Below, piece after piece: positions 4,890 through 16,640 of a stretch of DNA of 64,000 nt. How positions within the stretch are numbered: position 1 is the stretch's first letter; each line of letters opens with the position of its first letter. The DNA lies in the sequence record PP359570. The stretch is one strand, 5' to 3'. The stretch is from Escherichia phage ALITA. Below the pieces are notes generated by a model, which worked only from the letters and a program-made list of their open reading frames with translations, had not been told where the DNA came from and ran no database searches. The position numbers were made by a program, and so were the translations under genes.

Positions 4890-5104
4890 TATTTTGAAAA
4901 TTTTTATTTTTATAAAAAGGGGTGTGGGTTTCATGTACGGAAATCCACCCTCTGAATAATATATCCAGAGTAAGTAGTATTCTGTACTCTGTTAATAAAG
5001 TATTTAATTTGTTTGTTGGATTATGGTGGCTGATCTTTAAAAGGCATACTATCTCTTAACTACTACTTATAACAAAACAGTAAAATCCTTTTTATAAAAG
5101 TACA

Positions 5105-5305
5105 AAATTATTTAAAGTTTTTACAGATTTTCGGGTACAAATTTTGAAAATGAAAAGTTCAAGTTTGGTCAAAATTATTTAAAGTTTTTGTACGTATTTC
5201 TGTCCAGATTTTGAAAATGAAAACTTCAATTTTTTAAAAATTCCCCAGTTTATTTAAAGTTTTTTTGCCTTTTTCCGTAGAAAAATCAAAAATGAAAAGT
5301 TCAAT
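5105..5305. repeat. three imperfect direct repeats (~67-75 bp iterons)
   Basis: Blocks TTATTTAAAGTTTTT (5108, 5175, 5249) and GAAAATGAAAAGTTCAA (5144, 5210, 5287) recur in the same order. Confidence 0.6.
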
Positions 5306-5327
5306 TTCGTGTTTTTATAGGTGTGTT

Positions 5328-5439
5328 AATGAGAATCATTTTCGTTTGTAAATGAGAATCATTATCATTTAACTATGTAAGTGATAATCATTCTCAGTAA
5401 GAGAATGAGAATCATTAGCAAATGAGAATTTTTCTCATT
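5328..5439. promoter_or_regulatory. array of five Fur-box-like operators (AATGAGAATCATT)
   Basis: 13-mers at 5328, 5351, 5380, 5404 and the perfect palindrome AATGAGAA-TTT-TTCTCATT at 5421-5439; the 19-mer ending at 5364 matches GATAATGATAATCATTATC at 16/19. Confidence 0.5.
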
Positions 5440-5674
5440 TACAGAATAACGCGCAGGGGCGGTGTTTGTCTCGCGCTCCCGTGTCCCCTCGCCATACAAT
5501 AAGAATAGCATAACCAATAACAAAAGCAAGCGATTATTTTTATCTTTACATTTCTTTACAAATTTATTTTAGACGAGCTACCGGCGATCAACCTTCCAAC
5601 CAGTGCCCCCTGGTATGTTAGCCCCGCCTTTACGCCGTGGGGTGGCGTTTCCTCTTCTGTATGTAAAACAGTAT

Positions 5675-5693
5675 AAGCCCGATCCCTGGGCTT
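5675..5693 (-). terminator. intrinsic terminator AAGCCC-N7-GGGCTT
   Basis: Hairpin 7 nt after stop of 5701..5967 on minus strand, followed by atactgtttt. Confidence 0.5.
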
Positions 5694-5700
5694 GTCAAGA

Positions 5701-5967
5701 TTATTTTTTGTTTTCTTGCCAGGATAGGACACCTAACCAAAAATACATGTCGCCCCGCGCCCCTGGTGGGATCTTGCTTTCCCCGCCGCCACTGCAAGCC
5801 CATAAATAACCATCAGCGAACGGATCAAAGTGATCTATCTCTTCCACCTTATGATCGCCCAGGTTGAGAACGGTTTCAACCTTTAAGCCCGTTGCGCTTG
5901 CTACCTGGTGCACCGTGCCGCCTTGCCAGCCCAGTGAGTGCATGAGATGTAAAGAAGTATTTGTCAT
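5701..5967 (-). CDS. hypothetical protein (only minus-strand gene of the island)
   Basis: 88-aa ORF with its own promoter/hairpin/purine leader upstream and a terminator downstream. Confidence 0.6.
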   Translation of the reverse strand: MTNTSLHLMHSLGWQGGTVHQVASATGLKVETVLNLGDHKVEEIDHFDPFADGYLWACSGGGESKIPPGARGDMYFWLGVLSWQENKK

Positions 5968-5989
5968 GGTATCGCCCTTTCTTTGTTGT

Positions 5990-6043
5990 GCGCCCTGGTT
6001 GGCGCGGTAGAAAGATGATAGCCGTTTCCTTCATATATAGCAA
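5990..6043 (-). promoter_or_regulatory. promoter + leader hairpin cassette (minus strand) for 5701..5967
   Basis: TTGCTA-N17-TATCAT, then GCGCC-AACCAG-GGCGC hairpin, then acaacaaagaaaggg leader before ATG. Confidence 0.5.
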
Positions 6044-6077
6044 GCAAAAAAGAAATGAAAAAAAGATTAAAAAATGG

Positions 6078-6106
6078 TTGACGTTCCTCACCTGGTAGCG
6101 TAGTAT
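6078..6106 (+). promoter_or_regulatory. sigma70-like promoter TTGACG-N17-TAGTAT
   Basis: Consensus-like hexamers, divergent from the minus-strand promoter at 6015-6043. Confidence 0.45.
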
Positions 6107-6233
6107 TCATCTTGTCGAGGGGGGCAAGACACAACGACAATAAACAATAGGCGGGTGCAATGCAAGACGGGCAAAGGTGAGGATCTCCACAATCCACCGT
6201 CACAATAACATTACTTATAAAAGGTTGATAACG

Positions 6234-6329
6234 ATGATCAAGAAAGAAAATAGCTTGACGGTTGGAACGATTAACGCTATCATTCTTGCCGTTCCATTTT
6301 GGATTGTAGTTGCGGTTATTATTTTCTAA
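6234..6329 (+). CDS. 31-aa hydrophobic peptide (hand-called)
   Basis: ATG..TAA, sequence MIKKENSLTVGTINAIILAVPFWIVVAVIIF; lies between promoters 6078 and 6340. Confidence 0.4.
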   Translation: MIKKENSLTVGTINAIILAVPFWIVVAVIIF

Positions 6330-6339
6330 AAAAATATTC

Positions 6340-6397
6340 TTGACAACGTTTTTTAATCTGATAAGATGTATCACATAGGGCGGCAATAGTGCCGCTC
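6340..6397 (+). promoter_or_regulatory. promoter/hairpin cassette C1 (serves 6420)
   Basis: TTGACA-N16-TAAGAT (TGn extended), cacATAG, hairpin GGCGGCA-ATAG-TGCCGC, leader cataacagaagagagaaataatc. Confidence 0.7.
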
Positions 6398-6419
6398 ATA
6401 ACAGAAGAGAGAAATAATC

Positions 6420-6692
6420 ATGGCATCATATAGCGCATCAATGATTGTAAAGGGTATCACTGGTAAACCTATGCGCGGTGGCGGATCTTTCGCTAACATC
6501 AATATTGATGGACGTTTATCCCTGGACGCAGCGATCACAGTGGCACGGGAAACATTTAAAAAAGAATGTAATTTCAATAAACAAGATTATCTCGGTTTTG
6601 CTATTGAAAAAACCGCGCGCTTTGTGGATTATAAAAGCCCGAAAATGATCGACACTACACTAAAAGCGCAAGATGTAGCGTTTTTGCTTTAA
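6420..6692 (+). CDS. hypothetical protein
   Basis: 90-aa ORF directly behind cassette C1. Confidence 0.7.
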   Translation: MASYSASMIVKGITGKPMRGGGSFANINIDGRLSLDAAITVARETFKKECNFNKQDYLGFAIEKTARFVDYKSPKMIDTTLKAQDVAFLL

Positions 6693-6705
6693 GACTTGAC
6701 ACTGA

Positions 6706-6756
6706 AAAATAATTTGATAATATATACCACATAAGGCGGGGAAATGGTTTCCCGCC
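6706..6756 (+). promoter_or_regulatory. promoter/hairpin cassette C2 (serves 6779)
   Basis: TTGACA-N16-TAATAT, hairpin GGCGGGGAAA-TGG-TTTCCCGCC, leader aaatcaaagaaaggg. Confidence 0.7.
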
Positions 6757-6778
6757 AAATCAAAGAAAGGGTAATGCA

Positions 6779-7141
6779 ATGAGCAAGCAAATCAATACTA
6801 TCATGTTTAATCTGGTATCTTTCCGCGATGACGTGAAAAACCTTTCGCGTGATGCAGTGGATGCACGGATCGAAAGCTATCGCACACAGATCGCAACGTT
6901 ACCGCTGAAACGTGATCAACATGCCGCTAATATGATGCTTGATGCTATGATTAAAAAGATGATTCAATGTGATCTTACCCTGGCTTATGAATATGCTGGC
7001 GATCTCTTTGTAACATATAGCAAGCCCGTTCCAGGTATGAGCACCACGGAAGAATTGCATGCCTTAAATCTGCGACAAGATGCATGGGATAACATGCGCC
7101 GTGTTATGGTATGGGTAGAAAGCGGTAAAATTTACGAATAA
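6779..7141 (+). CDS. hypothetical protein
   Basis: 120-aa ORF behind cassette C2. Confidence 0.7.
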   Translation: MSKQINTIMFNLVSFRDDVKNLSRDAVDARIESYRTQIATLPLKRDQHAANMMLDAMIKKMIQCDLTLAYEYAGDLFVTYSKPVPGMSTTEELHALNLRQDAWDNMRRVMVWVESGKIYE

Positions 7142-7147
7142 AAACGG

Positions 7148-7200
7148 TTGACATTGCACTAAAACCTGATAAGCTATCTTAAAGCGGGAATAGTTCCCGC
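7148..7200 (+). promoter_or_regulatory. promoter/hairpin cassette C3 (serves 7220)
   Basis: TTGACA-N16-TAAGCT, hairpin GCGGGAA-TAG-TTCCCGC. Confidence 0.65.
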
Positions 7201-7219
7201 TTACATAGGATAAAACTTT

Positions 7220-7366
7220 ATGAAACAATATGTAATGAGTATTCACACCAAAAACGGCGCTACTGTTACGACTCCGGCACGGTTTGCACTTGTAAACCGT
7301 TGCAAGAGACTAAAACGAGAGCTAAAAAACAACCGTGCAACGGGCTTTAAACGCTGGGGAGGATAA
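7220..7366 (+). CDS. 48-aa basic protein (hand-called)
   Basis: ATG 20 nt after hairpin C3; ends GGAGGATAA, which supplies the RBS for the next gene. Confidence 0.5.
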   Translation: MKQYVMSIHTKNGATVTTPARFALVNRCKRLKRELKNNRATGFKRWGG

Positions 7367-7368
7367 TC

Positions 7369-7629
7369 TTGTTTTTTCTAAAAGTTTTTGATAATGTGAT
7401 CGCTTTTGAACATGCTACAACGTTCGACCTGGCGAGATACGCTATCAGGTTTAAAGATAATGTTTATCCCCGTGCTGGCGGCGGTTACACTATTTTTAAT
7501 CATCGCAACGCGCAACTAACTGATATAACTAATCCAGATCCTGGAGTGTATCGGATAGGCTGGCTACCGTCAAAAGATGCGGCAAGCATGTTTAAGGTAT
7601 GTAAACTACTAACAGAAGAGGCGAACTAA
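7369..7629 (+). CDS. hypothetical protein (TTG start)
   Basis: 86-aa ORF, GGAGG 6 nt upstream of TTG. Confidence 0.55.
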   Translation: MFFLKVFDNVIAFEHATTFDLARYAIRFKDNVYPRAGGGYTIFNHRNAQLTDITNPDPGVYRIGWLPSKDAASMFKVCKLLTEEAN

Positions 7630-7630
7630 C

Positions 7631-8185
7631 ATGGGGCGTGAATATGTGATCCAGTCCTGGGTAAAGCATGATGCTAATGATCCGCGCATAATACCAGATG
7701 ACATGATCGATCACATGGTAGGGTATAGCGGGGAGCAGATAGGAAATCGAGCGGCAAAGAGCAACGGCAACACCAGGACGCGATCCGTTCGCCCTGGATG
7801 GCTGGCAAATGGTAACGCTGACATTGCAAGCGCCGCAGATCCAAGCGATGACGCTAAAAATAATCCCTTATACAGTATTGATCCGGCTTTTAAGGTGTTG
7901 GAAGAGTATCCCGCTAAATTAGCCGCACTAGATAAAGCATACGAAGAAAAACGGGTGGCATGGACTGTATACAACACCGCTAAAATGGTGCTAGATGCAA
8001 AATTGATTAAAGCCCAGGAGAAGATCAATAAACTTGTTACCATAGCGCAAGAGGAAGACCAGGACGACCAGGAGGAAGAGGAAGAAATCATGCCTAACCT
8101 GGAAGAGGAAGAGATCCAGCCATACACGCCGACAGAAGAGGAAAAAATACAAGCCTTAAAAAATTATAAAAATTGTATTGTGTAA
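7631..8185 (+). CDS. hypothetical protein with strongly acidic C-terminus
   Basis: 184-aa ORF, 1 nt after previous stop; tail QEEDQDDQEEEEEIMPNLEEEE. Confidence 0.65.
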   Translation: MGREYVIQSWVKHDANDPRIIPDDMIDHMVGYSGEQIGNRAAKSNGNTRTRSVRPGWLANGNADIASAADPSDDAKNNPLYSIDPAFKVLEEYPAKLAALDKAYEEKRVAWTVYNTAKMVLDAKLIKAQEKINKLVTIAQEEDQDDQEEEEEIMPNLEEEEIQPYTPTEEEKIQALKNYKNCIV

Positions 8186-8188
8186 GGC

Positions 8189-8245
8189 TTGACATATGCA
8201 AACAAGCCCCGTAATATGTACCACATAGAGCGGGGCAACCCCCTC
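8189..8245 (+). promoter_or_regulatory. orphan promoter/hairpin cassette C4 (no ORF behind it)
   Basis: TTGACA-N17-TAATAT, cacATAG, GAGCGGGG-CAA-CCCCCTC hairpin, aaaggtgaaataaaaatc leader runs straight into the next promoter. Confidence 0.55.
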
Positions 8246-8265
8246 AAAGGTGAAATAAAAATCAC

Positions 8266-8293
8266 TTGACAACTGAAATCAGTAAGCTATAAT
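8266..8293 (+). promoter_or_regulatory. sigma70-like promoter TTGACA-N16-TATAAT (serves 8331)
   Basis: Perfect consensus hexamers; no GC hairpin in this leader. Confidence 0.6.
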
Positions 8294-8330
8294 GCTTATA
8301 TAAATTAAAGCGTTACTAAGGAATAAAATC

Positions 8331-8696
8331 ATGGCTAAAAATATCAATGTTTCTGCTTATGCTACCCTGGCTAACACTGCTAAAATTGAACTATCCAGCA
8401 TTGAAGCGGTACATATTAGCGCCCGTCGCTGGTTTCAAAAGTCTTATGGTAATACTTATTTCTCTTTGATGGTTGACGTTGAGATCGGCGGTAAACTGAT
8501 TGAAGTCGTTAACGTTCCGTTTCAATATGGTTATGGTGATCATTTTGATACCGTTGCCCTAGAAGAGTTTAGCAAGGTTATCAACCTGGAAGGTAAAGAC
8601 TTTTCAAATTATGCTTACCTTTCCCGTTTTTGCCGTGATAATGGGATCGCTGTATACAGTCATGCAAGCGATGTTAAACGTAAAAAAGATTTATAA
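8331..8696 (+). CDS. hypothetical protein
   Basis: 121-aa ORF, AAGGA RBS. Confidence 0.7.
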   Translation: MAKNINVSAYATLANTAKIELSSIEAVHISARRWFQKSYGNTYFSLMVDVEIGGKLIEVVNVPFQYGYGDHFDTVALEEFSKVINLEGKDFSNYAYLSRFCRDNGIAVYSHASDVKRKKDL

Positions 8697-8702
8697 AAAG
8701 TA

Positions 8703-8766
8703 TTGACAGCACGAATAAAAAGCGTAAAATGTTTTATATCAGGACGGGGGAACGGTTTCCCCTCCT
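8703..8766 (+). promoter_or_regulatory. promoter/hairpin cassette C5 (serves 8786)
   Basis: TTGACA-N16-TAAAAT, hairpin AGGACGGGGGAA-CGG-TTTCCCCTCCT, leader taacaaagagagaaataaaa. Confidence 0.65.
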
Positions 8767-8785
8767 AACAAAGAGAGAAATAAAA

Positions 8786-8968
8786 ATGGCTAAATGCACT
8801 ATCTGTAAGAAAGAAATAGTATTAGTTCCAAGCGCCCGTGAACGTGCCGCTAAGTTTGGTGGCAAACCGTCAGACTATACAAAAATGTTCACTACCCATG
8901 CAGCTTGCCAGGTAGCGAAACGTTCACAAGAAAGCGTAGAATTAATGCGTAAACTTTCCAAAAAATAA
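8786..8968 (+). CDS. hypothetical Cys-containing small protein
   Basis: Start moved to MAKCTICKK because the longer ORF (8729) would read through the promoter and hairpin. Confidence 0.6.
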   Translation: MAKCTICKKEIVLVPSARERAAKFGGKPSDYTKMFTTHAACQVAKRSQESVELMRKLSKK

Positions 8969-8970
8969 TA

Positions 8971-9029
8971 TTGACAAAGTATTTTATTACTATATAATGG
9001 TTTACATCGAGAGCGGGAATAGTTCCCGC
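8971..9029 (+). promoter_or_regulatory. promoter/hairpin cassette C6 (serves 9054)
   Basis: TTGACA-N16-TATAAT, hairpin GCGGGAA-TAG-TTCCCGC. Confidence 0.7.
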
Positions 9030-9053
9030 CTCACTGAAAAAGAGATTAACATC

Positions 9054-9293
9054 ATGGCTAAATCTAAAATGTACAACGGTCACAAAAACAAAACTCATTG
9101 GAATGTAAGCCTTTGGATCAACAACGATGAAGGTTTTTATAATCTTGCGCGTGAATTTATCGCAGCTAACACCAATAAGAATGACGCAGCGCGGGATATG
9201 ATGTTATTTCTTGAAAGTATGGATCAAGATAAAACGCCAGACGGTTACAAGTTCAGTAAAACTGCAATCCGTGCCGCTATGGTTGGAATGTAA
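9054..9293 (+). CDS. hypothetical protein (HWNVSLWINNDE motif)
   Basis: Start at MAKSKMY downstream of the hairpin; 79 aa. Confidence 0.65.
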   Translation: MAKSKMYNGHKNKTHWNVSLWINNDEGFYNLAREFIAANTNKNDAARDMMLFLESMDQDKTPDGYKFSKTAIRAAMVGM

Positions 9294-9306
9294 AGGAGAC
9301 ATAAAA

Positions 9307-9387
9307 ATGAAACATCGTTCGACCTATCTGACAAAACGTTTTAGCTTAGATCATAAATTAGGCTATTACGGAAGAAATAGAAAATAA
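9307..9387 (+). CDS. 26-aa basic peptide (hand-called, weak)
   Basis: GGAGA RBS then ATG; fills the 9294-9388 gap. Confidence 0.3.
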   Translation: MKHRSTYLTKRFSLDHKLGYYGRNRK

Positions 9388-9388
9388 T

Positions 9389-9448
9389 TTGACAACGTTT
9401 AAAATTAGTGTAAGATGTATCACATAGGGCGGGAAATGGTTTCCCGCC
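9389..9448 (+). promoter_or_regulatory. promoter/hairpin cassette C7 (serves 9471)
   Basis: TTGACA-N16-TAAGAT, cacATAG, GGCGGGAAA-TGG-TTTCCCGCC, leader aaatcaaagaaagg. Confidence 0.7.
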
Positions 9449-9470
9449 AAATCAAAGAAAGGTTATCATT

Positions 9471-9698
9471 ATGGCTATCGTTATTGTTCGCGTATCCGGT
9501 ACGGTTGGGATCTCCCAGGTAGTAGCAGTTATCACCGAGAAGAAAGGAGATGATCTTCACTCCTCCTTGAATAGCTGGGCGGTCGCTAACTTTGGGCAAT
9601 GGTCGAGCGTTGAGTACATCGAATCCTACCAGGTGCCAACGATTAGCCTAACCGATCTAAATGTTGATCGCTTGTTGTGCCTGGATCAATTAAACTAA
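9471..9698 (+). CDS. hypothetical protein
   Basis: 75-aa ORF behind cassette C7. Confidence 0.65.
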   Translation: MAIVIVRVSGTVGISQVVAVITEKKGDDLHSSLNSWAVANFGQWSSVEYIESYQVPTISLTDLNVDRLLCLDQLN

Positions 9699-9706
9699 AA
9701 ATAATA

Positions 9707-9764
9707 TTGACAAGATAACTAAAATCAGTAAAATGTAATGCATAGGGCGGCAATAGTGCCGCTC
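9707..9764 (+). promoter_or_regulatory. promoter/hairpin cassette C8 (serves 9786)
   Basis: TTGACA-N16-TAAAAT, gcATAG, GGCGGCA-ATAG-TGCCGC. Confidence 0.7.
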
Positions 9765-9785
9765 CTAGTGAGAGAGATTATCAAG

Positions 9786-10001
9786 ATGGCTAATATCCGC
9801 ACACTGTTAAAAAATGCAAGTCAAGTTTTATTTTCAGATGACGAGTATTTCAACAAAGACATTACAGGCGTGAAAAATTTAAAAGACGTGAAGGATGTTA
9901 TCGGTATCCGTGGATCTTTACGTAAAGGTGACATATACGGTAACAAGGTGCAATATAAACTGTCAAAAGATTATGATTTTACTTTGACATTTATTTCATA
10001 A
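9786..10001 (+). CDS. hypothetical protein
   Basis: Start at MANIRTLL after the hairpin; 71 aa. Confidence 0.6.
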   Translation: MANIRTLLKNASQVLFSDDEYFNKDITGVKNLKDVKDVIGIRGSLRKGDIYGNKVQYKLSKDYDFTLTFIS

Positions 10002-10007
10002 AACCGC

Positions 10008-10068
10008 TTGCAATACTGCAAAAATAAAGTAAACTGTATTCATCAAGGCGGTGGAATAGCCCACCGCC
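10008..10068 (+). promoter_or_regulatory. promoter/hairpin cassette C9 (serves 10092)
   Basis: TTGCAA-N16-TAAACT, hairpin GGCGGTGG-AATAGC-CCACCGCC, leader taacaaagagaagagg. Confidence 0.6.
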
Positions 10069-10091
10069 TAACAAAGAGAAGAGGAAACATC

Positions 10092-10262
10092 ATGATCACT
10101 TTCGCTACCCGTGAAGCCGCTCGCAACGTTGCACGTAAAGTTAACGCCGCCAACCTGGGCGCTACGCTTAAAGCCCCGGTAAAAGATGAATCAGGTAAAT
10201 GGATCTTCCCTGGTCTGCGTCACGCTGATAAGCTGGGAACGTTAACGCTAAAAAATAAATAA
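10092..10262 (+). CDS. hypothetical protein (56 aa)
   Basis: Start at MITFATRE after the hairpin. Confidence 0.55.
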   Translation: MITFATREAARNVARKVNAANLGATLKAPVKDESGKWIFPGLRHADKLGTLTLKNK

Positions 10263-10269
10263 AATCCGC

Positions 10270-10328
10270 TTGACAGTAGCATCATTTATAAGTAAAGTAA
10301 CAACAACGGCGGGAAATGGTTTCCCGCC
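10270..10328 (+). promoter_or_regulatory. promoter/hairpin cassette C10 (serves 10349)
   Basis: TTGACA-N17-TAAAGT, GGCGGGAAA-TGG-TTTCCCGCC, leader atcaataaagagataagatc. Confidence 0.7.
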
Positions 10329-10348
10329 ATCAATAAAGAGATAAGATC

Positions 10349-10708
10349 ATGAAATCAGTAAAAGCAATTAAAACTTACATTGTGTCGGCTATTTCTTTTG
10401 ATGGTACTACAACCGAAAAAGAAAAGATCACCGAACTGATGCGCCGTTTTAACTCTGAATACTGGTATCCCGATAATCAAAAACGTTACAATTATAACGT
10501 GATCAAGGCAATAGCCTCATGGTTACAAGGTTTACCGTCAGAAATCAATATTGCTTTTGATTATAACGAGATCGATCACTTGTTAATTGAATGGAAGTAC
10601 ATAAAAGAAACAAGCAAAGAAACAACCGTTACCCGTGAGCGGGAAAATTATTGGTTATATATTGCAAGCATGATCGTAATCCTGGCAAAACAGCATAACG
10701 CGGCGTAA
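10349..10708 (+). CDS. hypothetical protein
   Basis: 119-aa ORF behind cassette C10. Confidence 0.7.
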   Translation: MKSVKAIKTYIVSAISFDGTTTEKEKITELMRRFNSEYWYPDNQKRYNYNVIKAIASWLQGLPSEINIAFDYNEIDHLLIEWKYIKETSKETTVTRERENYWLYIASMIVILAKQHNAA

Positions 10709-10723
10709 TTAAGAGGAAAAAAC

Positions 10724-10861
10724 ATGAACGCATCACAGCAGATCGAAAAATTCAACCGCAGCAAGGCGCGTAAAGATTGGAACGAAGAGATCACCAAAAA
10801 AGGCGACAAGCGGAACAAAACAAAAAGAGATCGCAGCACAAAAAGATACTGGAACGAATAA
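10724..10861 (+). CDS. 45-aa lysine/arginine-rich protein (hand-called)
   Basis: AAGAGGA RBS, ATG; ends 6 nt before the terminator. Confidence 0.45.
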   Translation: MNASQQIEKFNRSKARKDWNEEITKKGDKRNKTKRDRSTKRYWNE

Positions 10862-10867
10862 CAAAAA

Positions 10868-10888
10868 GGGCGCAATAAGCGCCCTTTT
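10868..10888 (+). terminator. intrinsic terminator GGGCGC-AATAA-GCGCCC + TTTT
   Basis: Perfect stem plus T-run; same design as 14803 and 15959. Confidence 0.65.
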
Positions 10889-10978
10889 AGCTTATATAGA
10901 GGCTTGTTACCCATAGGCAATGGTAACGCCAGGGCAAGCCTATAAATCAACGTTAGACGGCTTTACAGGAGCTTTAAA

Positions 10979-11161
10979 ATGAGATTAGAAGAAATAAGCA
11001 AGGCACTAGCCCAGGGGCAAAGGTTAAACGCCCGTTATCGTGATCAATATGGCTTCATAACTAGCGGCGTGATCCTGGGGATTGAAGGCAATAAGATTTT
11101 TATTGACACGTTGAAAAACGTTGTATATAGTGACAATATAATCTCAATAAAACATATATGA
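10979..11161 (+). CDS. hypothetical protein
   Basis: 60-aa ORF with AGGAG RBS. Confidence 0.55.
   Translation: MRLEEISKALAQGQRLNARYRDQYGFITSGVILGIEGNKIFIDTLKNVVYSDNIISIKHI
11103..11131 (+). promoter_or_regulatory. sigma70-like promoter TTGACA-N17-TATAGT (inside 3' end of previous gene)
   Basis: Consensus-like hexamers ~40 nt upstream of 11170. Confidence 0.45.
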
Positions 11162-11169
11162 GGCAAGAA

Positions 11170-11571
11170 ATGAAAAAATTATTGATCGCTGGTTTAATCT
11201 CTTTTGGCATGGTTGGAACATCTAGCGCGGCGATATCCTCCACAGTAGCAGAATTAAGCGCCGTTGATGCAATGGAAAACGTCATGCTTATTAATAATGC
11301 GATCCCCGATGAAATCATGGAGGATTCACACATGATCGCTTATGGTGCTGTTACACAACTAACGGCAAAAATAGATAAATCTATTGTTAATGGCTTAAAT
11401 GAAGATGTACCATGTGAAATTATTACCAGTGTGCTCACTACTCAAAATTTTACGCCGTGGTTAAAAAGTATTCAAAAAGTACACAGTACAGCCGCAGATC
11501 GTAGCAATGAAAAACTAGTGTCAGCACTTGCAACGTATACCCTAGCAAAATGCACTGAAATAAAAGATTGA
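11170..11571 (+). CDS. secreted protein (signal peptide)
   Basis: MKKLLIAGLISFGMVGTSSA-A signal-peptide-like N-terminus; start chosen at MKKLL. Confidence 0.65.
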   Translation: MKKLLIAGLISFGMVGTSSAAISSTVAELSAVDAMENVMLINNAIPDEIMEDSHMIAYGAVTQLTAKIDKSIVNGLNEDVPCEIITSVLTTQNFTPWLKSIQKVHSTAADRSNEKLVSALATYTLAKCTEIKD

Positions 11572-11596
11572 CAGCATAGAAAGCACGTTATAAGAT
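11568..11596 (+). promoter_or_regulatory. sigma70-like promoter TTGACA-N17-TAAGAT (serves 11619)
   Basis: Consensus hexamers, no hairpin; leader acacacaacaaaggag. Confidence 0.55.
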
Positions 11597-11618
11597 ACAC
11601 ACAACAAAGGAGAACTAC

Positions 11619-11921
11619 ATGAACGGCATAGCTAAAACGTTTTTTCTTTTTTCTGGTGTAAATGATCCATCAATAAAAGTCGATAGTGTAAAAGAAAACA
11701 ATACTATCACCGCTAAATTGTTTCAAGATGAAACAAATAACGTGCTAATCATTAATCTTAAAGAAATAACTAAAGGTTATTATACTATTGCTTACCATGC
11801 GATCTATCATGCTGGTACTAGCGAGGAAGTGCAAACAAGCAACAACGAAAGCGCGGCGCTACCTGGTGATCTGGTGCTGGGTGTTATTAGTTTAATTGTC
11901 AATGATTTTTTTAAGGAGTAA
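11619..11921 (+). CDS. hypothetical protein
   Basis: 100-aa ORF with AAGGAG RBS. Confidence 0.6.
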   Translation: MNGIAKTFFLFSGVNDPSIKVDSVKENNTITAKLFQDETNNVLIINLKEITKGYYTIAYHAIYHAGTSEEVQTSNNESAALPGDLVLGVISLIVNDFFKE

Positions 11922-11925
11922 AACC

Positions 11926-12021
11926 ATGCCCTATTTACATTTATTTTTCGGGATCTTATTGTCAGGATCTTTTTTCTTCTGTATGCTTGTTTCTATTGTA
12001 AACCACGTTTTAAGACATTAA
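11926..12021 (+). CDS. 31-aa hydrophobic peptide (hand-called)
   Basis: AAGGAG RBS in the end of the previous gene; MPYLHLFFGILLSGSFFFCMLVSIV. Confidence 0.4.
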   Translation: MPYLHLFFGILLSGSFFFCMLVSIVNHVLRH

Positions 12022-12030
12022 GGAAACAGC

Positions 12031-12150
12031 ATGAAAATTATTCCCGTACAATATAGCGTAATAAATCCAGCATATGAGGAAGGAAGGAAAACAAGCATGG
12101 CTTTATGTTGTATTGTTACTATAGCCATGTTGTTATATATTGTGTTTTAA
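12031..12150 (+). CDS. 39-aa peptide with C-terminal TM segment (hand-called)
   Basis: AAGGAAACAGC then ATG; ...MALCCIVTIAMLLYIVF. Confidence 0.4.
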   Translation: MKIIPVQYSVINPAYEEGRKTSMALCCIVTIAMLLYIVF

Positions 12151-12179
12151 TAGGTTTTATAGTTGTACGCTTTAAAGGC

Positions 12180-12231
12180 TTGACAATTTTTTGTTATGCT
12201 TTAAAATATATCTTGAAAACGGCAAAGGCCG
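12180..12231 (+). promoter_or_regulatory. promoter TTGACA-N16-TAAAAT + short CGGC-AAAG-GCCG hairpin (serves 12251)
   Basis: Consensus hexamers; degenerate version of the cassette hairpin. Confidence 0.5.
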
Positions 12232-12250
12232 CAAACAAAAGGGTAAAATT

Positions 12251-12574
12251 ATGAAATCTGTGATCGGTGTTTATTTGGATAACTCTGATTTTTTCTATCA
12301 TCGCGCGCGTTTACTTGATGCTATTGAAATGATAGAATCAGGCTTTAAAGAGTATCGCCTTGCACATGATGACCTGGAAGCATTACAGGGCAATAGTGTT
12401 TTTACATTGCAAGCGAAAGCACTATGCAAAAGCCGGATCGAGATTGCAAGTAAAAAGATAGAGCGCGGCATGTCCTGGTTACGCACCGCAGAAATCAACA
12501 TGGGGCAATGGTACGGCAAAAACTTAGAAAATAAACATGCTTTTGTAAATGTAGAAAATATTGAAGATTATTGA
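12251..12574 (+). CDS. hypothetical protein
   Basis: Start at MKSVIGVY downstream of the promoter; 107 aa. Confidence 0.6.
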   Translation: MKSVIGVYLDNSDFFYHRARLLDAIEMIESGFKEYRLAHDDLEALQGNSVFTLQAKALCKSRIEIASKKIERGMSWLRTAEINMGQWYGKNLENKHAFVNVENIEDY

Positions 12575-12636
12575 TTGACAGCACACCTGATAAGGAGTAT
12601 ATTGTATCTCATAGAGCGGGGAAATGGTTTCCCCGC
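12575..12636 (+). promoter_or_regulatory. promoter/hairpin cassette C15 (serves 12657)
   Basis: TTGACA-N17-TATATT, tcATAG, GCGGGGAAA-TGG-TTTCCCCGC, leader ttaacagaagagataagat. Confidence 0.7.
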
Positions 12637-12656
12637 CTTAACAGAAGAGATAAGAT

Positions 12657-12941
12657 ATGAAGATCACAAAAGCACTTTCCAACTATGCAGCACGTCGCGG
12701 ATTATGCTTATCCGTTGAAAACTTAGGGAAAGAAGATTTTTTGTGCTTTTGGGAGCTTGAGAATGATAATGAGTGGATCTTCTCTTATTCTATCTGCAAA
12801 GATCAAAATGGTTGCTTGTTAACCTGGCGCGGTAATATCTATCTACCGGAAGAAATCAAAGAAGAATTACCAGGCACGATCATGACTGAGAAACAGCTTA
12901 AGGAAGTGATTAATTTTGTAGGGCAAAACATTAAAAAATAA
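12657..12941 (+). CDS. hypothetical protein
   Basis: 94-aa ORF behind cassette C15. Confidence 0.7.
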   Translation: MKITKALSNYAARRGLCLSVENLGKEDFLCFWELENDNEWIFSYSICKDQNGCLLTWRGNIYLPEEIKEELPGTIMTEKQLKEVINFVGQNIKK

Positions 12942-12942
12942 T

Positions 12943-13001
12943 TTGACACTAGGCAAACAACGTAGTAAAGTTTATCACATAGGGCGGCAATAGTGCCGCT
13001 C
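12943..13001 (+). promoter_or_regulatory. promoter/hairpin cassette C16 (serves 13024)
   Basis: TTGACA-N17-TAAAGT; 54 nt from tatcacatag to ATG (12973-13026) are identical to 6369-6422. Confidence 0.7.
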
Positions 13002-13023
13002 ATAACAGAAGAGAGAAATAATC

Positions 13024-13194
13024 ATGATCCCAACTATGTTTTATGTATCGCGCAAAGGTCACAATATTTTTTGGTCTGAAGATTTAAATGAAGCCATGAC
13101 GTTTGCCCGTGATCGTGTTGCTATCGGTGGCGTTAATATTACCGTAACCGATGAAAACGGCATTGAATACTACAACGGCGACGATGAAGAGTAA
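13024..13194 (+). CDS. 56-aa hypothetical protein (hand-called)
   Basis: ATG at the end of the duplicated leader; MIPTMFYVSRKGHNIFW... Confidence 0.55.
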   Translation: MIPTMFYVSRKGHNIFWSEDLNEAMTFARDRVAIGGVNITVTDENGIEYYNGDDEE

Positions 13195-13201
13195 TTAATA
13201 A

Positions 13202-13223
13202 GGCGGGGGGAGTATTCCCCGCC
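13202..13223 (+). promoter_or_regulatory. leader hairpin without promoter (C17, serves 13243)
   Basis: GGCGGGG-GGAGTATT-CCCCGCC then atcaataaagagataaatc ATG; no TTGACA upstream. Confidence 0.5.
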
Positions 13224-13242
13224 ATCAATAAAGAGATAAATC

Positions 13243-13512
13243 ATGAAAATATCATTGGACGTTGCAATCAAGGCCATCGAATCCGGTTACACCCTGGTAA
13301 AAGATGATAAGGCTAAAACCGTGCACCACGTTAACAAGGAAACAGGCGAAAGCATGATCACATATAAAGCCGCCTACTTTCTCCAATCAGTAGCAGATCC
13401 GCGCGTACAACGCCAGGTTACGGCGGCTATTGCTAAAAAATTATGTGCTTTACAGGGTACAAGTTTTAACGAGATCGCCCCGTGTTTTGACTGGTCGAGC
13501 TTGAAAAAATAG
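13243..13512 (+). CDS. hypothetical protein
   Basis: 89-aa ORF behind hairpin C17. Confidence 0.7.
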   Translation: MKISLDVAIKAIESGYTLVKDDKAKTVHHVNKETGESMITYKAAYFLQSVADPRVQRQVTAAIAKKLCALQGTSFNEIAPCFDWSSLKK

Positions 13513-13513
13513 T

Positions 13514-13575
13514 TTGACAATACGCGGTTATCTGGTAAAGTGTACGACATAGGGCGGGGCAATAAGGCAACGCCC
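13514..13575 (+). promoter_or_regulatory. promoter/hairpin cassette C18 (serves 13594)
   Basis: TTGACA-N16-TAAAGT, acATAG, GGGCG...CGCCC stem with large loop. Confidence 0.6.
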
Positions 13576-13593
13576 ATTAATGAGGGTAGAATC

Positions 13594-13698
13594 ATGTTAG
13601 AGAAAATTTTCACGGTTGTAGTAGTGGGCCTGGCGTTATCGGTTGGAGTGGTTGCAACTATGGCTAACATGATCCTATCTTCCCACGGTATTGGATAA
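13594..13698 (+). CDS. 34-aa membrane peptide (hand-called)
   Basis: GAGGG RBS; MLEKIFTVVVVGLALSVGVVATMANMIL. Confidence 0.45.
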   Translation: MLEKIFTVVVVGLALSVGVVATMANMILSSHGIG

Positions 13699-13708
13699 GG
13701 TGAATCAA

Positions 13709-13924
13709 ATGATCACGAATAAGACAGGTAAAACGGAATTCTTGCGCGGCTTGCAAATAGGTAAACCTGAGATCTGGCATTGCACTAAATCCGCGCATAA
13801 TGAAATGAAAGATTTTACCGCTACTTTACAACGTGTTAAAATATCTATCACGCAGAAAAAAGCCTTGTTAGTAGTAGAAAACGAGATACCGCAAACCATT
13901 ATTATTGTCGAGCGTACAGCATGA
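13709..13924 (+). CDS. hypothetical protein
   Basis: ORF track starts at TTG 13691; ATG 13709 has better TAAGGTG spacing. Confidence 0.55.
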   Translation: MITNKTGKTEFLRGLQIGKPEIWHCTKSAHNEMKDFTATLQRVKISITQKKALLVVENEIPQTIIIVERTA

Positions 13925-14307
13925 AAACTGAAATCATTATTGAAATCATCAACGGTTATAAAGAAGCCTTTATTTTTGCTGAATCAGCCAGGGATCATGA
14001 AGGTAATTTTATAGATGACATGACTGATCATGAGTTTTCAGATCAAGCCCATCAGCGGATCATACATGACGTGGCGGCGTTTTGTGATGCCAATGATGCC
14101 GCTATCTCTGAGGCAATGAGCGACGGCGCTACAGCAAACCAGATCGGGAATGACTTACATTTCACCCGTAATGGTCACGGCGTAGGCTTTTGGGATCGCC
14201 CTGAAATATACACTACTAACACCGCCAACCGACTAACAAATGCAGCTAAATTAATGCCATCGGTGCATGCTTACATTGGTGAAGATAATTTGATTTATAT
14301 TGAATAA
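13921..14307 (+). CDS. hypothetical protein (RNGHGVGFWD motif)
   Basis: 128-aa ORF, ATGA overlap with the previous gene. Confidence 0.7.
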   Translation: MKTEIIIEIINGYKEAFIFAESARDHEGNFIDDMTDHEFSDQAHQRIIHDVAAFCDANDAAISEAMSDGATANQIGNDLHFTRNGHGVGFWDRPEIYTTNTANRLTNAAKLMPSVHAYIGEDNLIYIE

Positions 14308-14313
14308 AAAGTA

Positions 14314-14372
14314 TTGACACCGATCCCCAATATGGTATGATTTACCACGTAGGCGGGAAATGGTTTCCCGCC
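14314..14372 (+). promoter_or_regulatory. promoter/hairpin cassette C19 (serves 14396)
   Basis: TTGACA-N16-TATGAT (TGn extended), cacGTAG, GGCGGGAAA-TGG-TTTCCCGCC. Confidence 0.7.
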
Positions 14373-14395
14373 AGGTAATCAAAAAGGTAAATACT

Positions 14396-14785
14396 ATGCG
14401 CAACCTGGTTTCTGTTTCTAACGTTGAAAAATTCCAATCTTTACAGGGTATCGTTAACAACGTAGCGCCTTTTTTAGTCAATGGCTTGATTGCAAAGATG
14501 AAAAATAAACATCATGCGGCATGGTCTGCTTACTGCTTTGATAATGATGAAAAAGCGGCTGAAATGATGTTAGATATGCTGTTAGATAGTGTAGAAACAT
14601 CTTTACCGGAAAACATCGCAGAAGAGATCACCTATCGTTATAATATGGCGATCACTTACCAGGAGGTTGCGCAATTTAATATGATGGATGATGACGAACA
14701 ACAGGATCAGGAAATGTTCTGGGAGTATGCAGATCGTCAATCGGCTTTTGATGAAAAGTTAGCGATGTATTATAACGAATATTAA
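14396..14785 (+). CDS. hypothetical acidic protein
   Basis: Start at MRNLVSV after the hairpin; 129 aa. Confidence 0.6.
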   Translation: MRNLVSVSNVEKFQSLQGIVNNVAPFLVNGLIAKMKNKHHAAWSAYCFDNDEKAAEMMLDMLLDSVETSLPENIAEEITYRYNMAITYQEVAQFNMMDDDEQQDQEMFWEYADRQSAFDEKLAMYYNEY

Positions 14786-14802
14786 TACACGGTAAAAGAA
14801 AG

Positions 14803-14826
14803 GGGCGCACTAAGCGCCCTTTTTTG
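14803..14826 (+). terminator. intrinsic terminator GGGCGC-ACTAA-GCGCCC + T6
   Basis: Perfect stem plus tttttt. Confidence 0.7.
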
Positions 14827-15170
14827 TATTCTTTTTTCACGATGGAAACAACACGTAAAGAATAGGCGTAAAGGTGGCGTAAAACAGCCTAAAACCGATT
14901 ATAACCGCTTAAACAAGGTAATAATGACTAATCACCTTGCCAGGATGAAAAAGCTGTTATAAAGCTATTTAGAGCGTTTAAAGCACATAGGAAATAATTT
15001 GCTTTTTATCTTGCCTTTTATCCTGCTTTTGATTATTATTATGGAACGGGCGGCACCTGGGGACAGGGGAAGATAATCACCGGAAGATCCCGCTATATAT
15101 TAATAGCTAATACCTATCAAACAACAAAACATCAAAGGAATAAACTATCAAATCTTTACAATCCTACCTA

Positions 15171-15231
15171 TTGACACAGGATCACCCTTATACTAATATG
15201 TATCCCGTAGGGCGGGAAATGGTTTCCCGCT
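15171..15231 (+). promoter_or_regulatory. promoter/hairpin cassette C20 (serves 15250)
   Basis: TTGACA-N17-TAATAT, ccGTAG, GGCGGGAAA-TGG-TTTCCCGC. Confidence 0.7.
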
Positions 15232-15249
15232 TGATATAGGAATCATACC

Positions 15250-15483
15250 ATGATCGAACAAATTAAAAGCACTACACCAAATGTTAACGGCAATGTTTCA
15301 CACTTTATCGGTGATAATGAAAGGGGCACACCATACGCCGCCGTAACCGTGCAACCTAATGGCGATTATTGGTTTACCGTGTACGGATCATACTCTTTCG
15401 GACGCCCGGCACATGATAAGATCTTGCAAGCGGTTAAACCTGCGGGGAAGAATATCACAGCAGAAAAATTTTATAAAAAATAG
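15250..15483 (+). CDS. hypothetical protein
   Basis: 77-aa ORF behind cassette C20. Confidence 0.7.
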   Translation: MIEQIKSTTPNVNGNVSHFIGDNERGTPYAAVTVQPNGDYWFTVYGSYSFGRPAHDKILQAVKPAGKNITAEKFYKK

Positions 15484-15484
15484 C

Positions 15485-15513
15485 TTGCTTTATTTCTTCT
15501 GTTAACTTATAGT
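15485..15513 (+). promoter_or_regulatory. promoter TTGCTT-N17-TATAGT with degenerate cassette remnant (gcGTAGGGC, no stem)
   Basis: Hexamers plus a conserved GTAGGGC word, but the palindrome is lost. Confidence 0.45.
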
Positions 15514-15558
15514 TATCGCGTAGGGCAAACAATTTTAAACGGTAAACGAGGAATCACC

Positions 15559-15942
15559 ATGAGCAATATCATCAACCTGGCAGCGACTGTAAACGGTAAA
15601 GACTTTAACGGCGCTGTAGACCGTGATCCTATGTGGTGCTTATCAGTGTTTAAAGGCGATCTGGTTGAAGTTAGAACAACCGAAGGTTATAGCGACGATT
15701 ATAAATGCGAGATTCATTTACACAACTGGTACACGGGTAAAACTTATGCGCTGAATCACGCGTTTATCGGGAAAATTGAATATCGCGAGATGATCGACGA
15801 AGAAACGGGGCAAGATTTTAGCGAGCATGTTTATATTCGTTCAGAAACATTAGCCGAACGTTTGATCGAGAAAATGAAAGCAAAAAATAAAATTAATTTA
15901 TCTCATTGGATTGATATAACAAACGATCCGGCTTATAAGTAA
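15559..15942 (+). CDS. hypothetical protein
   Basis: 127-aa ORF with GAGGA RBS. Confidence 0.7.
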   Translation: MSNIINLAATVNGKDFNGAVDRDPMWCLSVFKGDLVEVRTTEGYSDDYKCEIHLHNWYTGKTYALNHAFIGKIEYREMIDEETGQDFSEHVYIRSETLAERLIEKMKAKNKINLSHWIDITNDPAYK

Positions 15943-15958
15943 ATAACATTTCACACCA

Positions 15959-15985
15959 GGGCGCACAAAGCGCCCTTTCTTTTTA
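15959..15985 (+). terminator. intrinsic terminator GGGCGC-ACAAA-GCGCCC + T-run (end of island)
   Basis: Perfect stem plus tttcttttt. Confidence 0.7.
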
Positions 15986-16189
15986 CCTAAATAAAGATGA
16001 TAGCTTTTACCTATCAAAAACGTTCACCGAAAAAAGTGAATAGATCGCGGTATCGAACTAATCAAGCAACAGATGAACAACCATACCATGAAGGTCATAA
16101 GGCGCTTACAACGTGTTTTAGACCGCTTATTTTTAATTTCTTCATGTAACTATCTGGCAAAAACAGCCTTTTTCTTGTCTTTCCTCTTA

Positions 16190-16260
16190 AATGATAATCA
16201 TTCTTATTTATAGCTGATTATTTATGCAATTTATTGCATAATGCAATAATGATAATCATT
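16190..16260. promoter_or_regulatory. two exact Fur-core 13-mers AATGATAATCATT flanking a triple ATGCAAT/ATTGCAT palindrome
   Basis: 13-mers at 16190-16202 and 16248-16260; ATGCAAT-TT-ATTGCAT-A-ATGCAAT at 16224-16247. Confidence 0.5.
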
Positions 16261-16640
16261 CCTAACTTAAGACCATCTAACCTATAAAATAATAAGTTAT
16301 CTAACTAAATTAAAACTAATTATCTCACTTTTATTTATAACTTACTGTTACTATCTCATTGATAACCTTATATTAAACAACAATAACTAATATAAATCAT
16401 TACTAAGCTAAATATAATCTATCTAACCCTTAAAACTACAATTATAATCTATCTAATTGTTGCACAAAGTAACTATTAAATTGTTAGTAACATTACTAAA
16501 TAATTCACATCCTATCTATTTATGATCTAATCTTTACCTTTCTATCTATTACCTAAATAACCATTTCATACAGTAATTATTCCATATGGTAATCATTTCA
16601 TACAATAATTATAACAAGAAATATAATTCGCAAGCGTATC

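Follow-up and report, generated by a model that had tools for sequence, protein, structure and literature searches.

Why are the small genes in one region of a large phage genome preceded, time after time, by the same ~85-bp unit of promoter, GC-rich hairpin, and purine-rich leader? The question is raised by positions 5990-15513 of a 64,000-nucleotide (nt) stretch of DNA from Escherichia phage ALITA (PP359570), the whole of which is called the window here and the 5990-15513 portion the island. The repeated unit, referred to below as the module or cassette, recalls the PeSL (promoter early stem-loop) cassettes of T4-type phages. We find that the cassettes are shuffled between related phages in the manner of PeSLs and that their hairpin is maintained for its pairing, and we propose that this hairpin may serve at the 5′ end of the mRNA.

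Aligned over 97-99% of its length, the island shares 95-97% identity with Escherichia phages inny, Paula, Nernie, ESCO9, and PaulScherrer, all of them Justusliebigvirus (Stephanstirmvirinae); with phi92 the identity is 95.7%, over 80% of the island. For the window, identity to Justusliebigvirus phages is 96-97%. Judged by these identities, the source of the window is a phi92-like myovirus (Justusliebigvirus). The excess of the module is confirmed to lie far beyond chance. When both strands of the whole window were scanned for perfect TTGACA-N16/17-TAnnnT promoters, 18 sites were found on the plus strand between 6340 and 15171, and a separate promoter scan returned the same 18 sites with 10-12 of 12 matches. 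They sit 34-68 nt upstream of start codons and form the unit known from PeSLs, a σ70-like early promoter ending in a Shine-Dalgarno sequence and ATG. Likewise, about 3.4 such promoter matches are expected by chance per ~50-kb third of the inny genome, and 33 are present in the third that bears the island. Perfect GC hairpins (stem of at least 6, at least 5 GC pairs, loop of 3-5) occur as 12 distinct examples in 5990-15513 versus a mean of 0.3 in 200 dinucleotide shuffles, at a density of 2.0 per kb versus 0.23 per kb in the remaining window. Between 5990 and 15560 we count 21 σ70-type promoter cassettes, 16 of which carry a near-perfect GC hairpin (15 on the plus strand and one on the minus strand; Table 1). 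The hairpin coordinates of the original prediction were all reproduced; its statement that the module precedes almost every open reading frame (ORF) stands for these 16 cassettes but needs qualification elsewhere, as five promoters (8266, 11103, 11568, 12180, and 15486) have no family hairpin or only a trivial stem, the hairpin and leader at 13202 have no promoter, and cassette 8189 has no ORF of its own.

The same hairpins recur in different company. The allele GGCGGGAAA-TGG-TTTCCCGCC is found at 9428, 10308, and 14352, with near copies at 6735, 12616, and 15212; GGCGGCA-ATAG-TGCCGC at 6379, 9746, and 12983; and GCGGGAA-TAG-TTCCCGC at 7182/7184 and 9013, while single variants stand at 8228, 8741, 10046, 13202, and 13552 and the minus-strand copy at 5990-6005. 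A repeat search places the modules in families D1-D7, with 3-9 copies each. The 61-nt stretches 6362-6422 and 12966-13026 are 95% identical, with unrelated ORFs downstream; from hairpin to ATG (12973-13026), the second of these stretches matches exactly the 6340 module as found in inny and in Paula; and the leader ATCAATAAAGAGATAA occurs behind two different stems (10320 and 13215). Because five island genes (8331, 8786, 9054, 9471, and 9786) start with ATGGCTA (Met-Ala-Lys/Asn/Ile), the homology of the cassettes extends into the first codons. Repeat families and orthologue groups thus bear out the earlier impression of a recombined mosaic of hairpin alleles, leader subtypes, and ORFs.

Direct evidence of recombination between cassettes is provided by homology at the junctions and by a hybrid module. 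To locate junctions, BLAST alignments of the island to nine close relatives were chained, and an end was scored as in-module when it fell within the module ±10 nt. By this measure, modules hold 23 of the 32 distinct junction ends and make up 22.7% of the island (binomial p = 5e-9). At 5 of 10 distinct junctions, the aligned blocks overlap by 7-21 nt on the window side, meaning that a piece of module stands on both sides of the indel gene. Modules 8703 and 8971 enclose the gene at 8786-8968, which Paula, phi92, PaulScherrer, and EC.P2 do not have; each of these phages has a single module there, composed of the -35 box and spacer of 8703 and the -10 box, hairpin, and leader of 8971, and in Paula this single module aligns to both window modules over 71 nt. 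Extra genes in relatives are inserted exactly at ATG 8331 and at the -35 boxes of 13514 and 15171, and two indel junctions (8331/8337 and 8795) fall exactly at ATGGCTA gene starts. As junction positions are scattered over the -35 box, spacer, hairpin, leader, and first codons and not placed at one cleavage site, they fit general homologous recombination. The suggestion that the cassettes are recombination points is thereby upheld: they are shown to be units of gene insertion, deletion, and replacement via homologous recombination, as PeSLs are.

The module is conserved across two phage subfamilies, Stephanstirmvirinae and Vequintavirinae. Within the inny genome, the combination of promoter and GCGG..CCGC-type hairpin occurs only at 127.4-136.4 kb, and a covariance model (R1) built from seven window copies matches only inside the island when the 64-kb window is scanned; as in the PeSL setting of a hyperplastic region with small ORFan genes, the modules are limited to one ~9-kb island. 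The same architecture and spacing are found in 14-16 copies each in the Phapecoctavirus phages ukendt, Schickermooser, 10C3, and iGC_PHA_EC001, and likewise in 3-4 copies in Klebsiella phages phi1_175008 and KP2025. Vequintavirine phages also share this layout and spacing, in fewer copies: 10 in A7_1, 6 in naswa, and 3 in rV5 (for example, GGCGGGAA-tgt-TTCCCGCC). When IMG/VR was searched for the exact pattern, only 8 stretches were returned, on six contigs of 15-153 kb. Across 185,579 bacterial genomes, the exact 21-nt hairpin was met as 7 scattered singletons in unrelated bacteria and in no enterobacterial genome. An Rfam scan of 5500-16500 (E ≤ 1) returned only a chance-level match to RF03142, at 20.8 bits versus a gathering score of 37.8.

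Variation among these copies shows that the hairpin is selected for base pairing and not for a particular sequence. The 165 instances compared comprise 43 distinct hairpins, nearly all perfect, with stems of 5-11 bp and loops of 3-7 nt. When they are grouped by downstream orthologue, the whole stem allele is seen to be exchanged while promoter and leader remain constant; before one and the same gene stand GCGGCA-atag-TGCCGC, GCGGGAAA-tgg-TTTCCCGC, GCGGCGGA-atgg-TCCACCGC, and GCGGGAA-gtggt-TTCCCGC. Loop sequences vary (tag, ttg, cta, cac, tgt, and aac) under unchanged stems. The promoterless stem at 13202 is conserved across genera; its copy in ukendt has lost two bases per arm with pairing kept, and its A7_1 orthologue is part of a full promoter cassette in which the stem, GGGGCG-acaag-CGCCCC, is unrelated. 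Of 145 orthologous 5′ regions, those of the Klebsiella phages and rV5 included, 144 retain a fold of -9 kcal/mol or stronger. In a loop-anchored alignment refined with a covariance model, 97.9% of stem cells are paired versus 82% in column shuffles, with 45-77% in slid controls, and 84 cells are changed on both sides versus 29 in shuffles, a value that none of 500 shuffles reached. These pairing figures lean high, the alignment being fitted to structure and the sequences being related; the orthologue comparisons are independent of the alignment. Alignment of whole leaders with MAFFT and RNAalifold was discarded after it mis-registered the stems and gave a meaningless 4-bp consensus.

In the window, the stems always lie 6-16 nt downstream of the -10 box, and in 188 of 204 instances (the window plus 18 related loci) the distance is 9-14 nt, with a mode of 12. 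The predicted start site was taken as the purine 7-8 nt past the -10 box. An (A/G)TAG word had been described 5-8 nt after that box; the word is present, but its spacing is 7-8 nt, which places it at the expected transcript start, where it would form the first four transcribed bases. Folded from these predicted starts, the 5′ untranslated regions (15 leaders) each form one hairpin, with folding energies between -13.6 and -18.7 kcal/mol (z = -1.9 to -4.5); 0-5 nt at the 5′ end stay unpaired before the stem, and in most cases the ribosome-binding leader is open, in agreement with the idea that the stem falls within the first ~30 nt of the predicted mRNA. The leader is A/G-rich, unstructured, and 17-25 nt long, and ends in a weak Shine-Dalgarno sequence and ATG. 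The mean anti-Shine-Dalgarno duplex is -4.3 kcal/mol for the 15 hairpin genes versus -6.6 for 14 other island genes (p = 0.0016), and the ribosome-binding-site classes annotated in the phi92 record agree with weak Shine-Dalgarno sequences behind the hairpins.

The module stems are also distinct from the terminators of the window, as had been claimed. No U-tract follows them on the plus strand, and none of the module hairpins fits the terminator pattern on that strand. The real terminators of the island (10864-10888, 14797-14825, and 15958-15976) are of another type, GGGCGC/GCGCCC with a T-run, and all fit the pattern; the remaining GC hairpins of the 64-kb window are all A-tract/T-tract terminators. 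Inside a run of cassettes, no classical terminators were found between one cassette and the next. In the Paula record, module hairpins are entered as "terminator" on the strand opposite the genes (1245-1269, 1697-1716, 4568-4591, 4825-4852, 7138-7161, and 7724-7749), and some are entered as ARNold terminators in the Schickermooser record; taken together, the two records place such entries mostly on the opposite strand. These entries are probably mis-annotations.

A role as a 5′ element fits best, because the stem lies downstream of the predicted start, is stable and 5′ proximal, and abuts an open, A-rich leader with a weak Shine-Dalgarno sequence and about the length of one ribosome footprint. 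The reading that we prefer, and to which we would give an even chance, is that the cassettes are shuffled as PeSLs are, but with the stem-loop shifted to a position downstream of the start site, where it most likely serves to stabilize the mRNA at its 5′ end or to insulate it, and not as a terminator. Each cassette consists of a near-consensus host σ70 promoter, an (A/G)UAG start, a GC hairpin 0-5 nt from the predicted 5′ end, an open leader, and ATG. On this reading, the hairpin would form a cap-like 5′-terminal structure that hinders RppH and 5′-end-dependent RNase E, as the stem-loops of ompA, papA, and T7 gene 10 do, and would shield the open leader from upstream sequence, such that any ORF dropped into the cassette would be expressed early and independently of context. 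In read-through transcripts, the stem could present a 3′ exonuclease barrier for the upstream cistron, and the stem at 13202 may act in that way or may give a protected 5′ end after processing. A stabilizing effect of 5′-terminal stem-loops on Escherichia coli mRNAs has been reported in the studies gathered in PMC3997798 (Emory 1992; Bouvet and Belasco 1992; Arnold 1998; Bricker and Belasco 1999, as cited there). The literature on phi92, rV5, PVP-SE1, Phapecoctavirus, and Justusliebigvirus was searched, and neither an account of the module nor transcript-end data came to light.

Several points weigh against this proposal. The start sites are predicted from promoters only, and at 13202 a stem is retained away from any primary 5′ end. 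In work on ompA, 3-5 unpaired 5′ nt are reportedly the upper limit of protection. The enrichment of junctions in modules is partly expected, only intergenic indels being viable. U(A/G)G loops predominate (132/165), which could reflect recent common descent or some recognition. Finally, G·T and A·C mispairs are not asymmetric, with 4 versus 3 in stems, 5 versus 5 at loop-closing positions, and 13 versus 14 in flanking positions, so selection on pairing could in principle act on DNA.

Two processing routes were considered beside this one. RNase III sites were rejected, the stems being only 5-11 bp. The Srd protein of T4 stimulates RNase E, and an activity of that kind would rationalize protected 5′ ends. 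A homologue of Srd is proposed in the rV5 genome paper; the PHROG scan of eight neighboring ORFs contained no Srd annotation, and the lead was not pursued genome-wide.

When the cassettes are placed beside known systems, the closest likeness is to the PeSL cassettes of T4-type phages (Arbiol, Comeau and Krisch 2010, PMC2839356; Comeau et al. 2014, PMC4122927). In both, units of ~60-100 bp recur through a plastic region whose genes are small ORFans; both join a near-consensus σ70 early promoter to a GC-rich stem-loop and, at the 3′ side, a Shine-Dalgarno sequence and ATG; and in both, the indel and replacement junctions of close relatives fall in the units, implying recombination between them. 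The order of parts differs. In RB49 and phi1, the stem-loop is placed between the -35 and -10 boxes or over them, and in PST/T4 and nt-1/KVP40 just upstream of the promoter; it is described as a terminator. In the island, by contrast, the stem comes 6-16 nt after the -10 box, forms the predicted 5′ end of the transcript, has no U-tract, and leads into a purine-rich leader with a weak Shine-Dalgarno sequence. The two also belong to different phage lineages and share no sequence similarity. The parallel first drawn with PeSLs is therefore to be kept for genomic behavior and given up for the position and terminator role of the stem-loop: the island cassette behaves as a PeSL at the genome level but lacks one defining PeSL feature, the order and role of the stem-loop.

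For the hairpin itself, the nearest counterparts are stabilizing 5′ stem-loops, of which the T7 gene 10 leader is one. Those of ompA and papA resemble the module in that a stable hairpin sits within a few nt of the 5′ end and the ribosome-binding region behind it is accessible; according to references cited by PMC3997798, they lengthen the life of the mRNA by blocking 5′-end-dependent decay. All three are single-gene elements, whereas the island element is repeated before 16-17 genes and evolves as a mobile module. Among host-takeover modules, the terminal redundancy of SPO1 and the pre-early region of T5 are comparable, with dense tiny early genes near a genome end, each or nearly each under a strong host-type promoter of its own. 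They differ from the island in their strong Shine-Dalgarno sequences, and to our knowledge, no repeated 5′ hairpin has been described for either. The rV5 genome paper gives promoters and terminators and leaves 5′ hairpins unmentioned.

The preferred reading has to be set against other explanations of the same hairpin. In one, the hairpin is a common operator: a single phage or host protein would bind the hairpin RNA, as a translational repressor or activator, or bind the DNA palindrome at +4 to +25 in the way of lacO, and would thereby co-regulate the island, for example in early shut-off. The same element does precede 16-17 genes of one temporal class and is found nowhere else in the window or the inny genome, GCGG/CCGC stem bases and the U(A/G)G loops noted above predominate, and the palindrome is centered near +14. 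A binding site would nevertheless have to tolerate half-sites whose spacing and sequence vary with stem and loop length, in alleles that are swapped before the same gene, and loops that drift under constant stems. Mirrored changes on both arms are a signature of pairing and not of a half-site consensus, and a unit of promoter, 11 nt, hairpin, and purine leader with an unrelated stem, AGGAGAGC, is present at 49602 on the minus strand. A common operator for one regulator, raised in the original prediction, is disfavored on these grounds, in particular because length and sequence of stem and loop vary between orthologues with pairing kept, and we regard it as unlikely. More speculatively, and in our view doubtful, the hairpin could be the shared handle of an "early RNA regulon," in which a phage or host factor recognizing its shape times the decay or translation of every island mRNA at the early-to-middle switch, and/or the cassettes could be exchanged as integron-like circles. 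Were that so, a large lytic phage would possess a dedicated gene-capture system.

A different function would follow if the stem-loop were an attenuator of the PeSL type, stopping read-through from upstream and leaving each gene isolated and in need of its own promoter. This would account for the presence of one promoter per island gene and for the lack of classical terminators between cassettes within a run, and in RB49 the PeSL stem-loop cut lacZ expression about as much as rrnB T1 (PMC2839356). The island stems, though, have no U-tract on the plus strand, and the runs end in another, canonical type of terminator. With the stem downstream of its own start, an efficient terminator would abort the cassette's own transcripts; all described PeSLs have the stem-loop upstream of or within the promoter. 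The conserved gene after the promoterless stem at 13202, moreover, could be expressed only by read-through. We consider attenuation improbable.

Much less probable still is a DNA-level role, in which the hairpin would be the substrate of a dedicated recombinase, either HUH/RAYT-like (RAYT, REP-associated tyrosine transposase; REP, repetitive extragenic palindrome) or site specific, after the manner of REP/RAYT elements or integron attC sites. Cassettes are mosaic and indels are bounded by them, mini-circles of PeSLs have been reported in T4-type phages, and, as in REPs and bacterial interspersed mosaic elements (BIMEs), a short conserved word ending in TAG adjoins a GC-rich palindrome on its 5′ side. 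The xTAG word, however, coincides exactly with the expected transcription start, the junctions spread across the module, ATG included, and offer no single cleavage site, and the island element is tied to promoters at a fixed spacing and has only the few nonenterobacterial hits already mentioned in bacterial genomes. The sole protein of inny annotated as "transposase-like," the one candidate tested, had no Pfam match and gave no sign of a Y1 transposase, though not every phage ORF was scanned. The REP/RAYT comparison that had been offered is thus not sustained. Least credible of all, and contradicted by conservation and covariation, is that the modules arose by duplication of a single intergenic sequence and have no function. 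The paralogues do resemble each other closely, two of them being 95% identical over 61 nt, yet the element is kept across both subfamilies where the surrounding DNA is 70-80% identical or unalignable, its changes are compensatory or on both arms, and structure is retained in nearly all orthologous 5′ regions. Hairpin promoters of the N4 type were dropped as a candidate, each stem here following a canonical σ70 promoter; we know of no virion RNA polymerase in the phi92-like lineage.

Comparison with phi92 places the island in the genome. In that linear genome of 148.6 kb, its counterpart spans 138.3-147.2 kb and is followed by the right terminal repeat annotated at 148,270-148,612, and the island genes are all oriented toward that end. 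In a PHROG scan of ten island proteins, all ten fell in families of unknown function, and gene content differs in each relative compared. The island is best explained as an early, right-terminal small-gene region made of ~20 autonomous expression cassettes. Its features are collected in Table 1.

Table 1. Cassettes, promoters, hairpins, and terminators of the island, in window coordinates
Feature	Position	Strand	Details
Cassette for ORF 5701-5967	5965-6043	-	TTGCTA-17-TATCAT; hairpin GCGCC-aaccag-GGCGC 5990-6005; leader acaacaaagaaagggcgatacc, then ATG
Promoter, no family hairpin	6078-6130	+	TTGACG-17-TAGTAT; in phages SD2 and EC.P2 a deletion joins it directly to the 6379 hairpin
Cassette	6340-6422	+	TTGACA-16-TAAGAT; hairpin 6379-6395 GGCGGCA-atag-TGCCGC; leader; ATG 6420
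Cassette	6696-6781	+	TTGACA-16-TAATAT; hairpin 6735-6756; ATG 6779
Cassette	7148-7222	+	TTGACA-16-TAAGCT; hairpin 7182-7202 AAGCGGGAA-tag-TTCCCGCTT; ATG 7220; orthologue loops tag, ttg, cta
Cassette without ORF	8189-8262	+	Promoter and imperfect hairpin 8228-8245, then directly the next promoter
Consensus promoter, no hairpin	8266-8333	+	TTGACA-16-TATAAT; ATG 8331; extra gene of relatives enters exactly at ATG
Cassette	8703-8788	+	Hairpin 8741-8766; ATG 8786; upstream flank of gene 8786-8968
Cassette	8971-9056	+	TTGACA-16-TATAAT; hairpin 9013-9029; ATG 9054; other flank of gene 8786-8968
Cassette	9389-9473	+	Hairpin 9428-9448 GGCGGGAAA-tgg-TTTCCCGCC; ATG 9471
Cassette	9707-9788	+	Hairpin 9746-9762; ATG 9786
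Cassette, -35 box TTGCAA	10008-10094	+	Hairpin 10046-10069 AGGCGGTGG-aatagc-CCACCGCCT; ATG 10092
Cassette	10270-10351	+	Hairpin 10308-10328; ATG 10349
Bidirectional intrinsic terminator	10864-10888	.	AAAAGGGCGC-aataa-GCGCCCTTTT; contrast to module hairpins
Promoter cassette, no family hairpin	11103-11172	+	ATG 11170
Promoter cassette, no hairpin	11568-11621	+	Strong AAGGAG Shine-Dalgarno; ATG 11619
Promoter cassette, weak 4-bp hairpin only	12180-12253	+	Hairpin 12220-12231; ATG 12251
Cassette	12575-12659	+	Hairpin 12616-12636 GCGGGGAAA-tgg-TTTCCCCGC; ATG 12657
Cassette	12943-13026	+	Hairpin 12983-12999; ATG 13024
Promoterless hairpin and leader	13195-13245	+	Between two co-transcribed genes; hairpin 13202-13223; ATG 13243
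Cassette	13514-13596	+	Interrupted hairpin 13552-13575; ATG 13594; -35 box is insertion junction in Paula, muut, ESCO32, PD06
Cassette	14314-14398	+	Hairpin 14352-14372; ATG 14396
Intrinsic terminator with T-run	14797-14825	+	End of second cassette run
Cassette	15171-15252	+	Hairpin 15212-15230; ATG 15250; -35 box is junction in ESCO32, EC.P2
Weaker promoter, no hairpin	15486-15561	+	TTGCTT...TAGTTA; GTAGGGC start region kept; ATG 15559

Other elements were observed in and around the island. The hydrophobic peptide MIKKENSLTVGTINAIILAVPFWIVVAVIIF is encoded by a 31-codon ORF at 6235-6329, which follows the hairpin-less promoter at 6078 after a leader of ~130 nt; the PaulScherrer annotation includes this ORF, and that of most relatives does not. 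At 15011-15110, a conserved noncoding element, AACGGGCGGCACCTGGGGACAGGGGAAGATAATCACCGGAAGATCCCGCTATATATT, stands behind a promoter-like site of its own, TTGCCT-17-TATTAT. It is almost unchanged in Justusliebigvirus, Phapecoctavirus, and A7_1, and rV5 keeps the first ~38 nt; an Rfam scan of the element gave no match, and it may be a small RNA.

Upstream of the island, a noncoding stretch of ~800 bp contains, at 5324-5440, about five copies of AATGAGAATCATT and one of GTGATAATCATTCTC. The Fur box of E. coli is GATAATGATAATCATTATC, which this cluster resembles; it could be a Fur-regulated or Fur-titrating site, or could represent origin iterons. In the same region, two to three tandem repeats of ~67 bp (…AAATTATTTAAAGTTTTT…GAAAATGAAAAC/GTTCAA…) at 5103-5300, entered as a repeat_region in the inny record, may be an origin or a packaging-related array. 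Beyond the island, a 16-nt tandem repeat, AATAATCATTTCATAC, is present in 3.4 copies at 16556-16609, in noncoding DNA between the island and the next gene block and, judged by comparison with phi92, near the position of the terminal repeat.

Elsewhere in the window, some promoter-like sites on the minus strand are also followed by hairpins. That at 49544-49602 has a GC hairpin, AGGAGAGC-tat-GCTCTCCT, 11 nt past the -10 box and then a purine-rich leader, copying the island layout with an unrelated stem. At 51753-51800, the hairpin CGCTCCCA-caaa-TGGGAGCG, again with an unrelated stem, comes directly after the -10 box and is followed by a purine-rich leader. Perfect TTGACA promoters at 30037 and 37951 are followed, before the gene, by canonical T-run terminator hairpins (AAAGCCCC-aatca-GGGGCTTT and AAACCCCC-ttga-GGGGGTTT, respectively).

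In conclusion, the module is apparently undescribed for the phi92/rV5 lineage and presents a clear, experimentally tractable variant of a known idea, not a new kind of system. One consequence is a rule for annotation, since module stems are now automatically annotated as terminators, often on the wrong strand. The cassette also offers phage engineering and synthetic biology a small, naturally occurring part, and the island proteins are good candidates for host-takeover or anti-defense factors. If the preferred reading holds, the PeSL idea would extend to a second, unrelated group of large myoviruses, in which the stem-loop would have switched jobs from terminator to 5′ mRNA element. Phages of the phi92/rV5 type would own a standard plug-in expression socket of promoter, protective 5′ hairpin, and insulated leader, and a small gene recombined into that socket would be expressed at once after infection, which would explain why the gene content of the island differs in almost every isolate.

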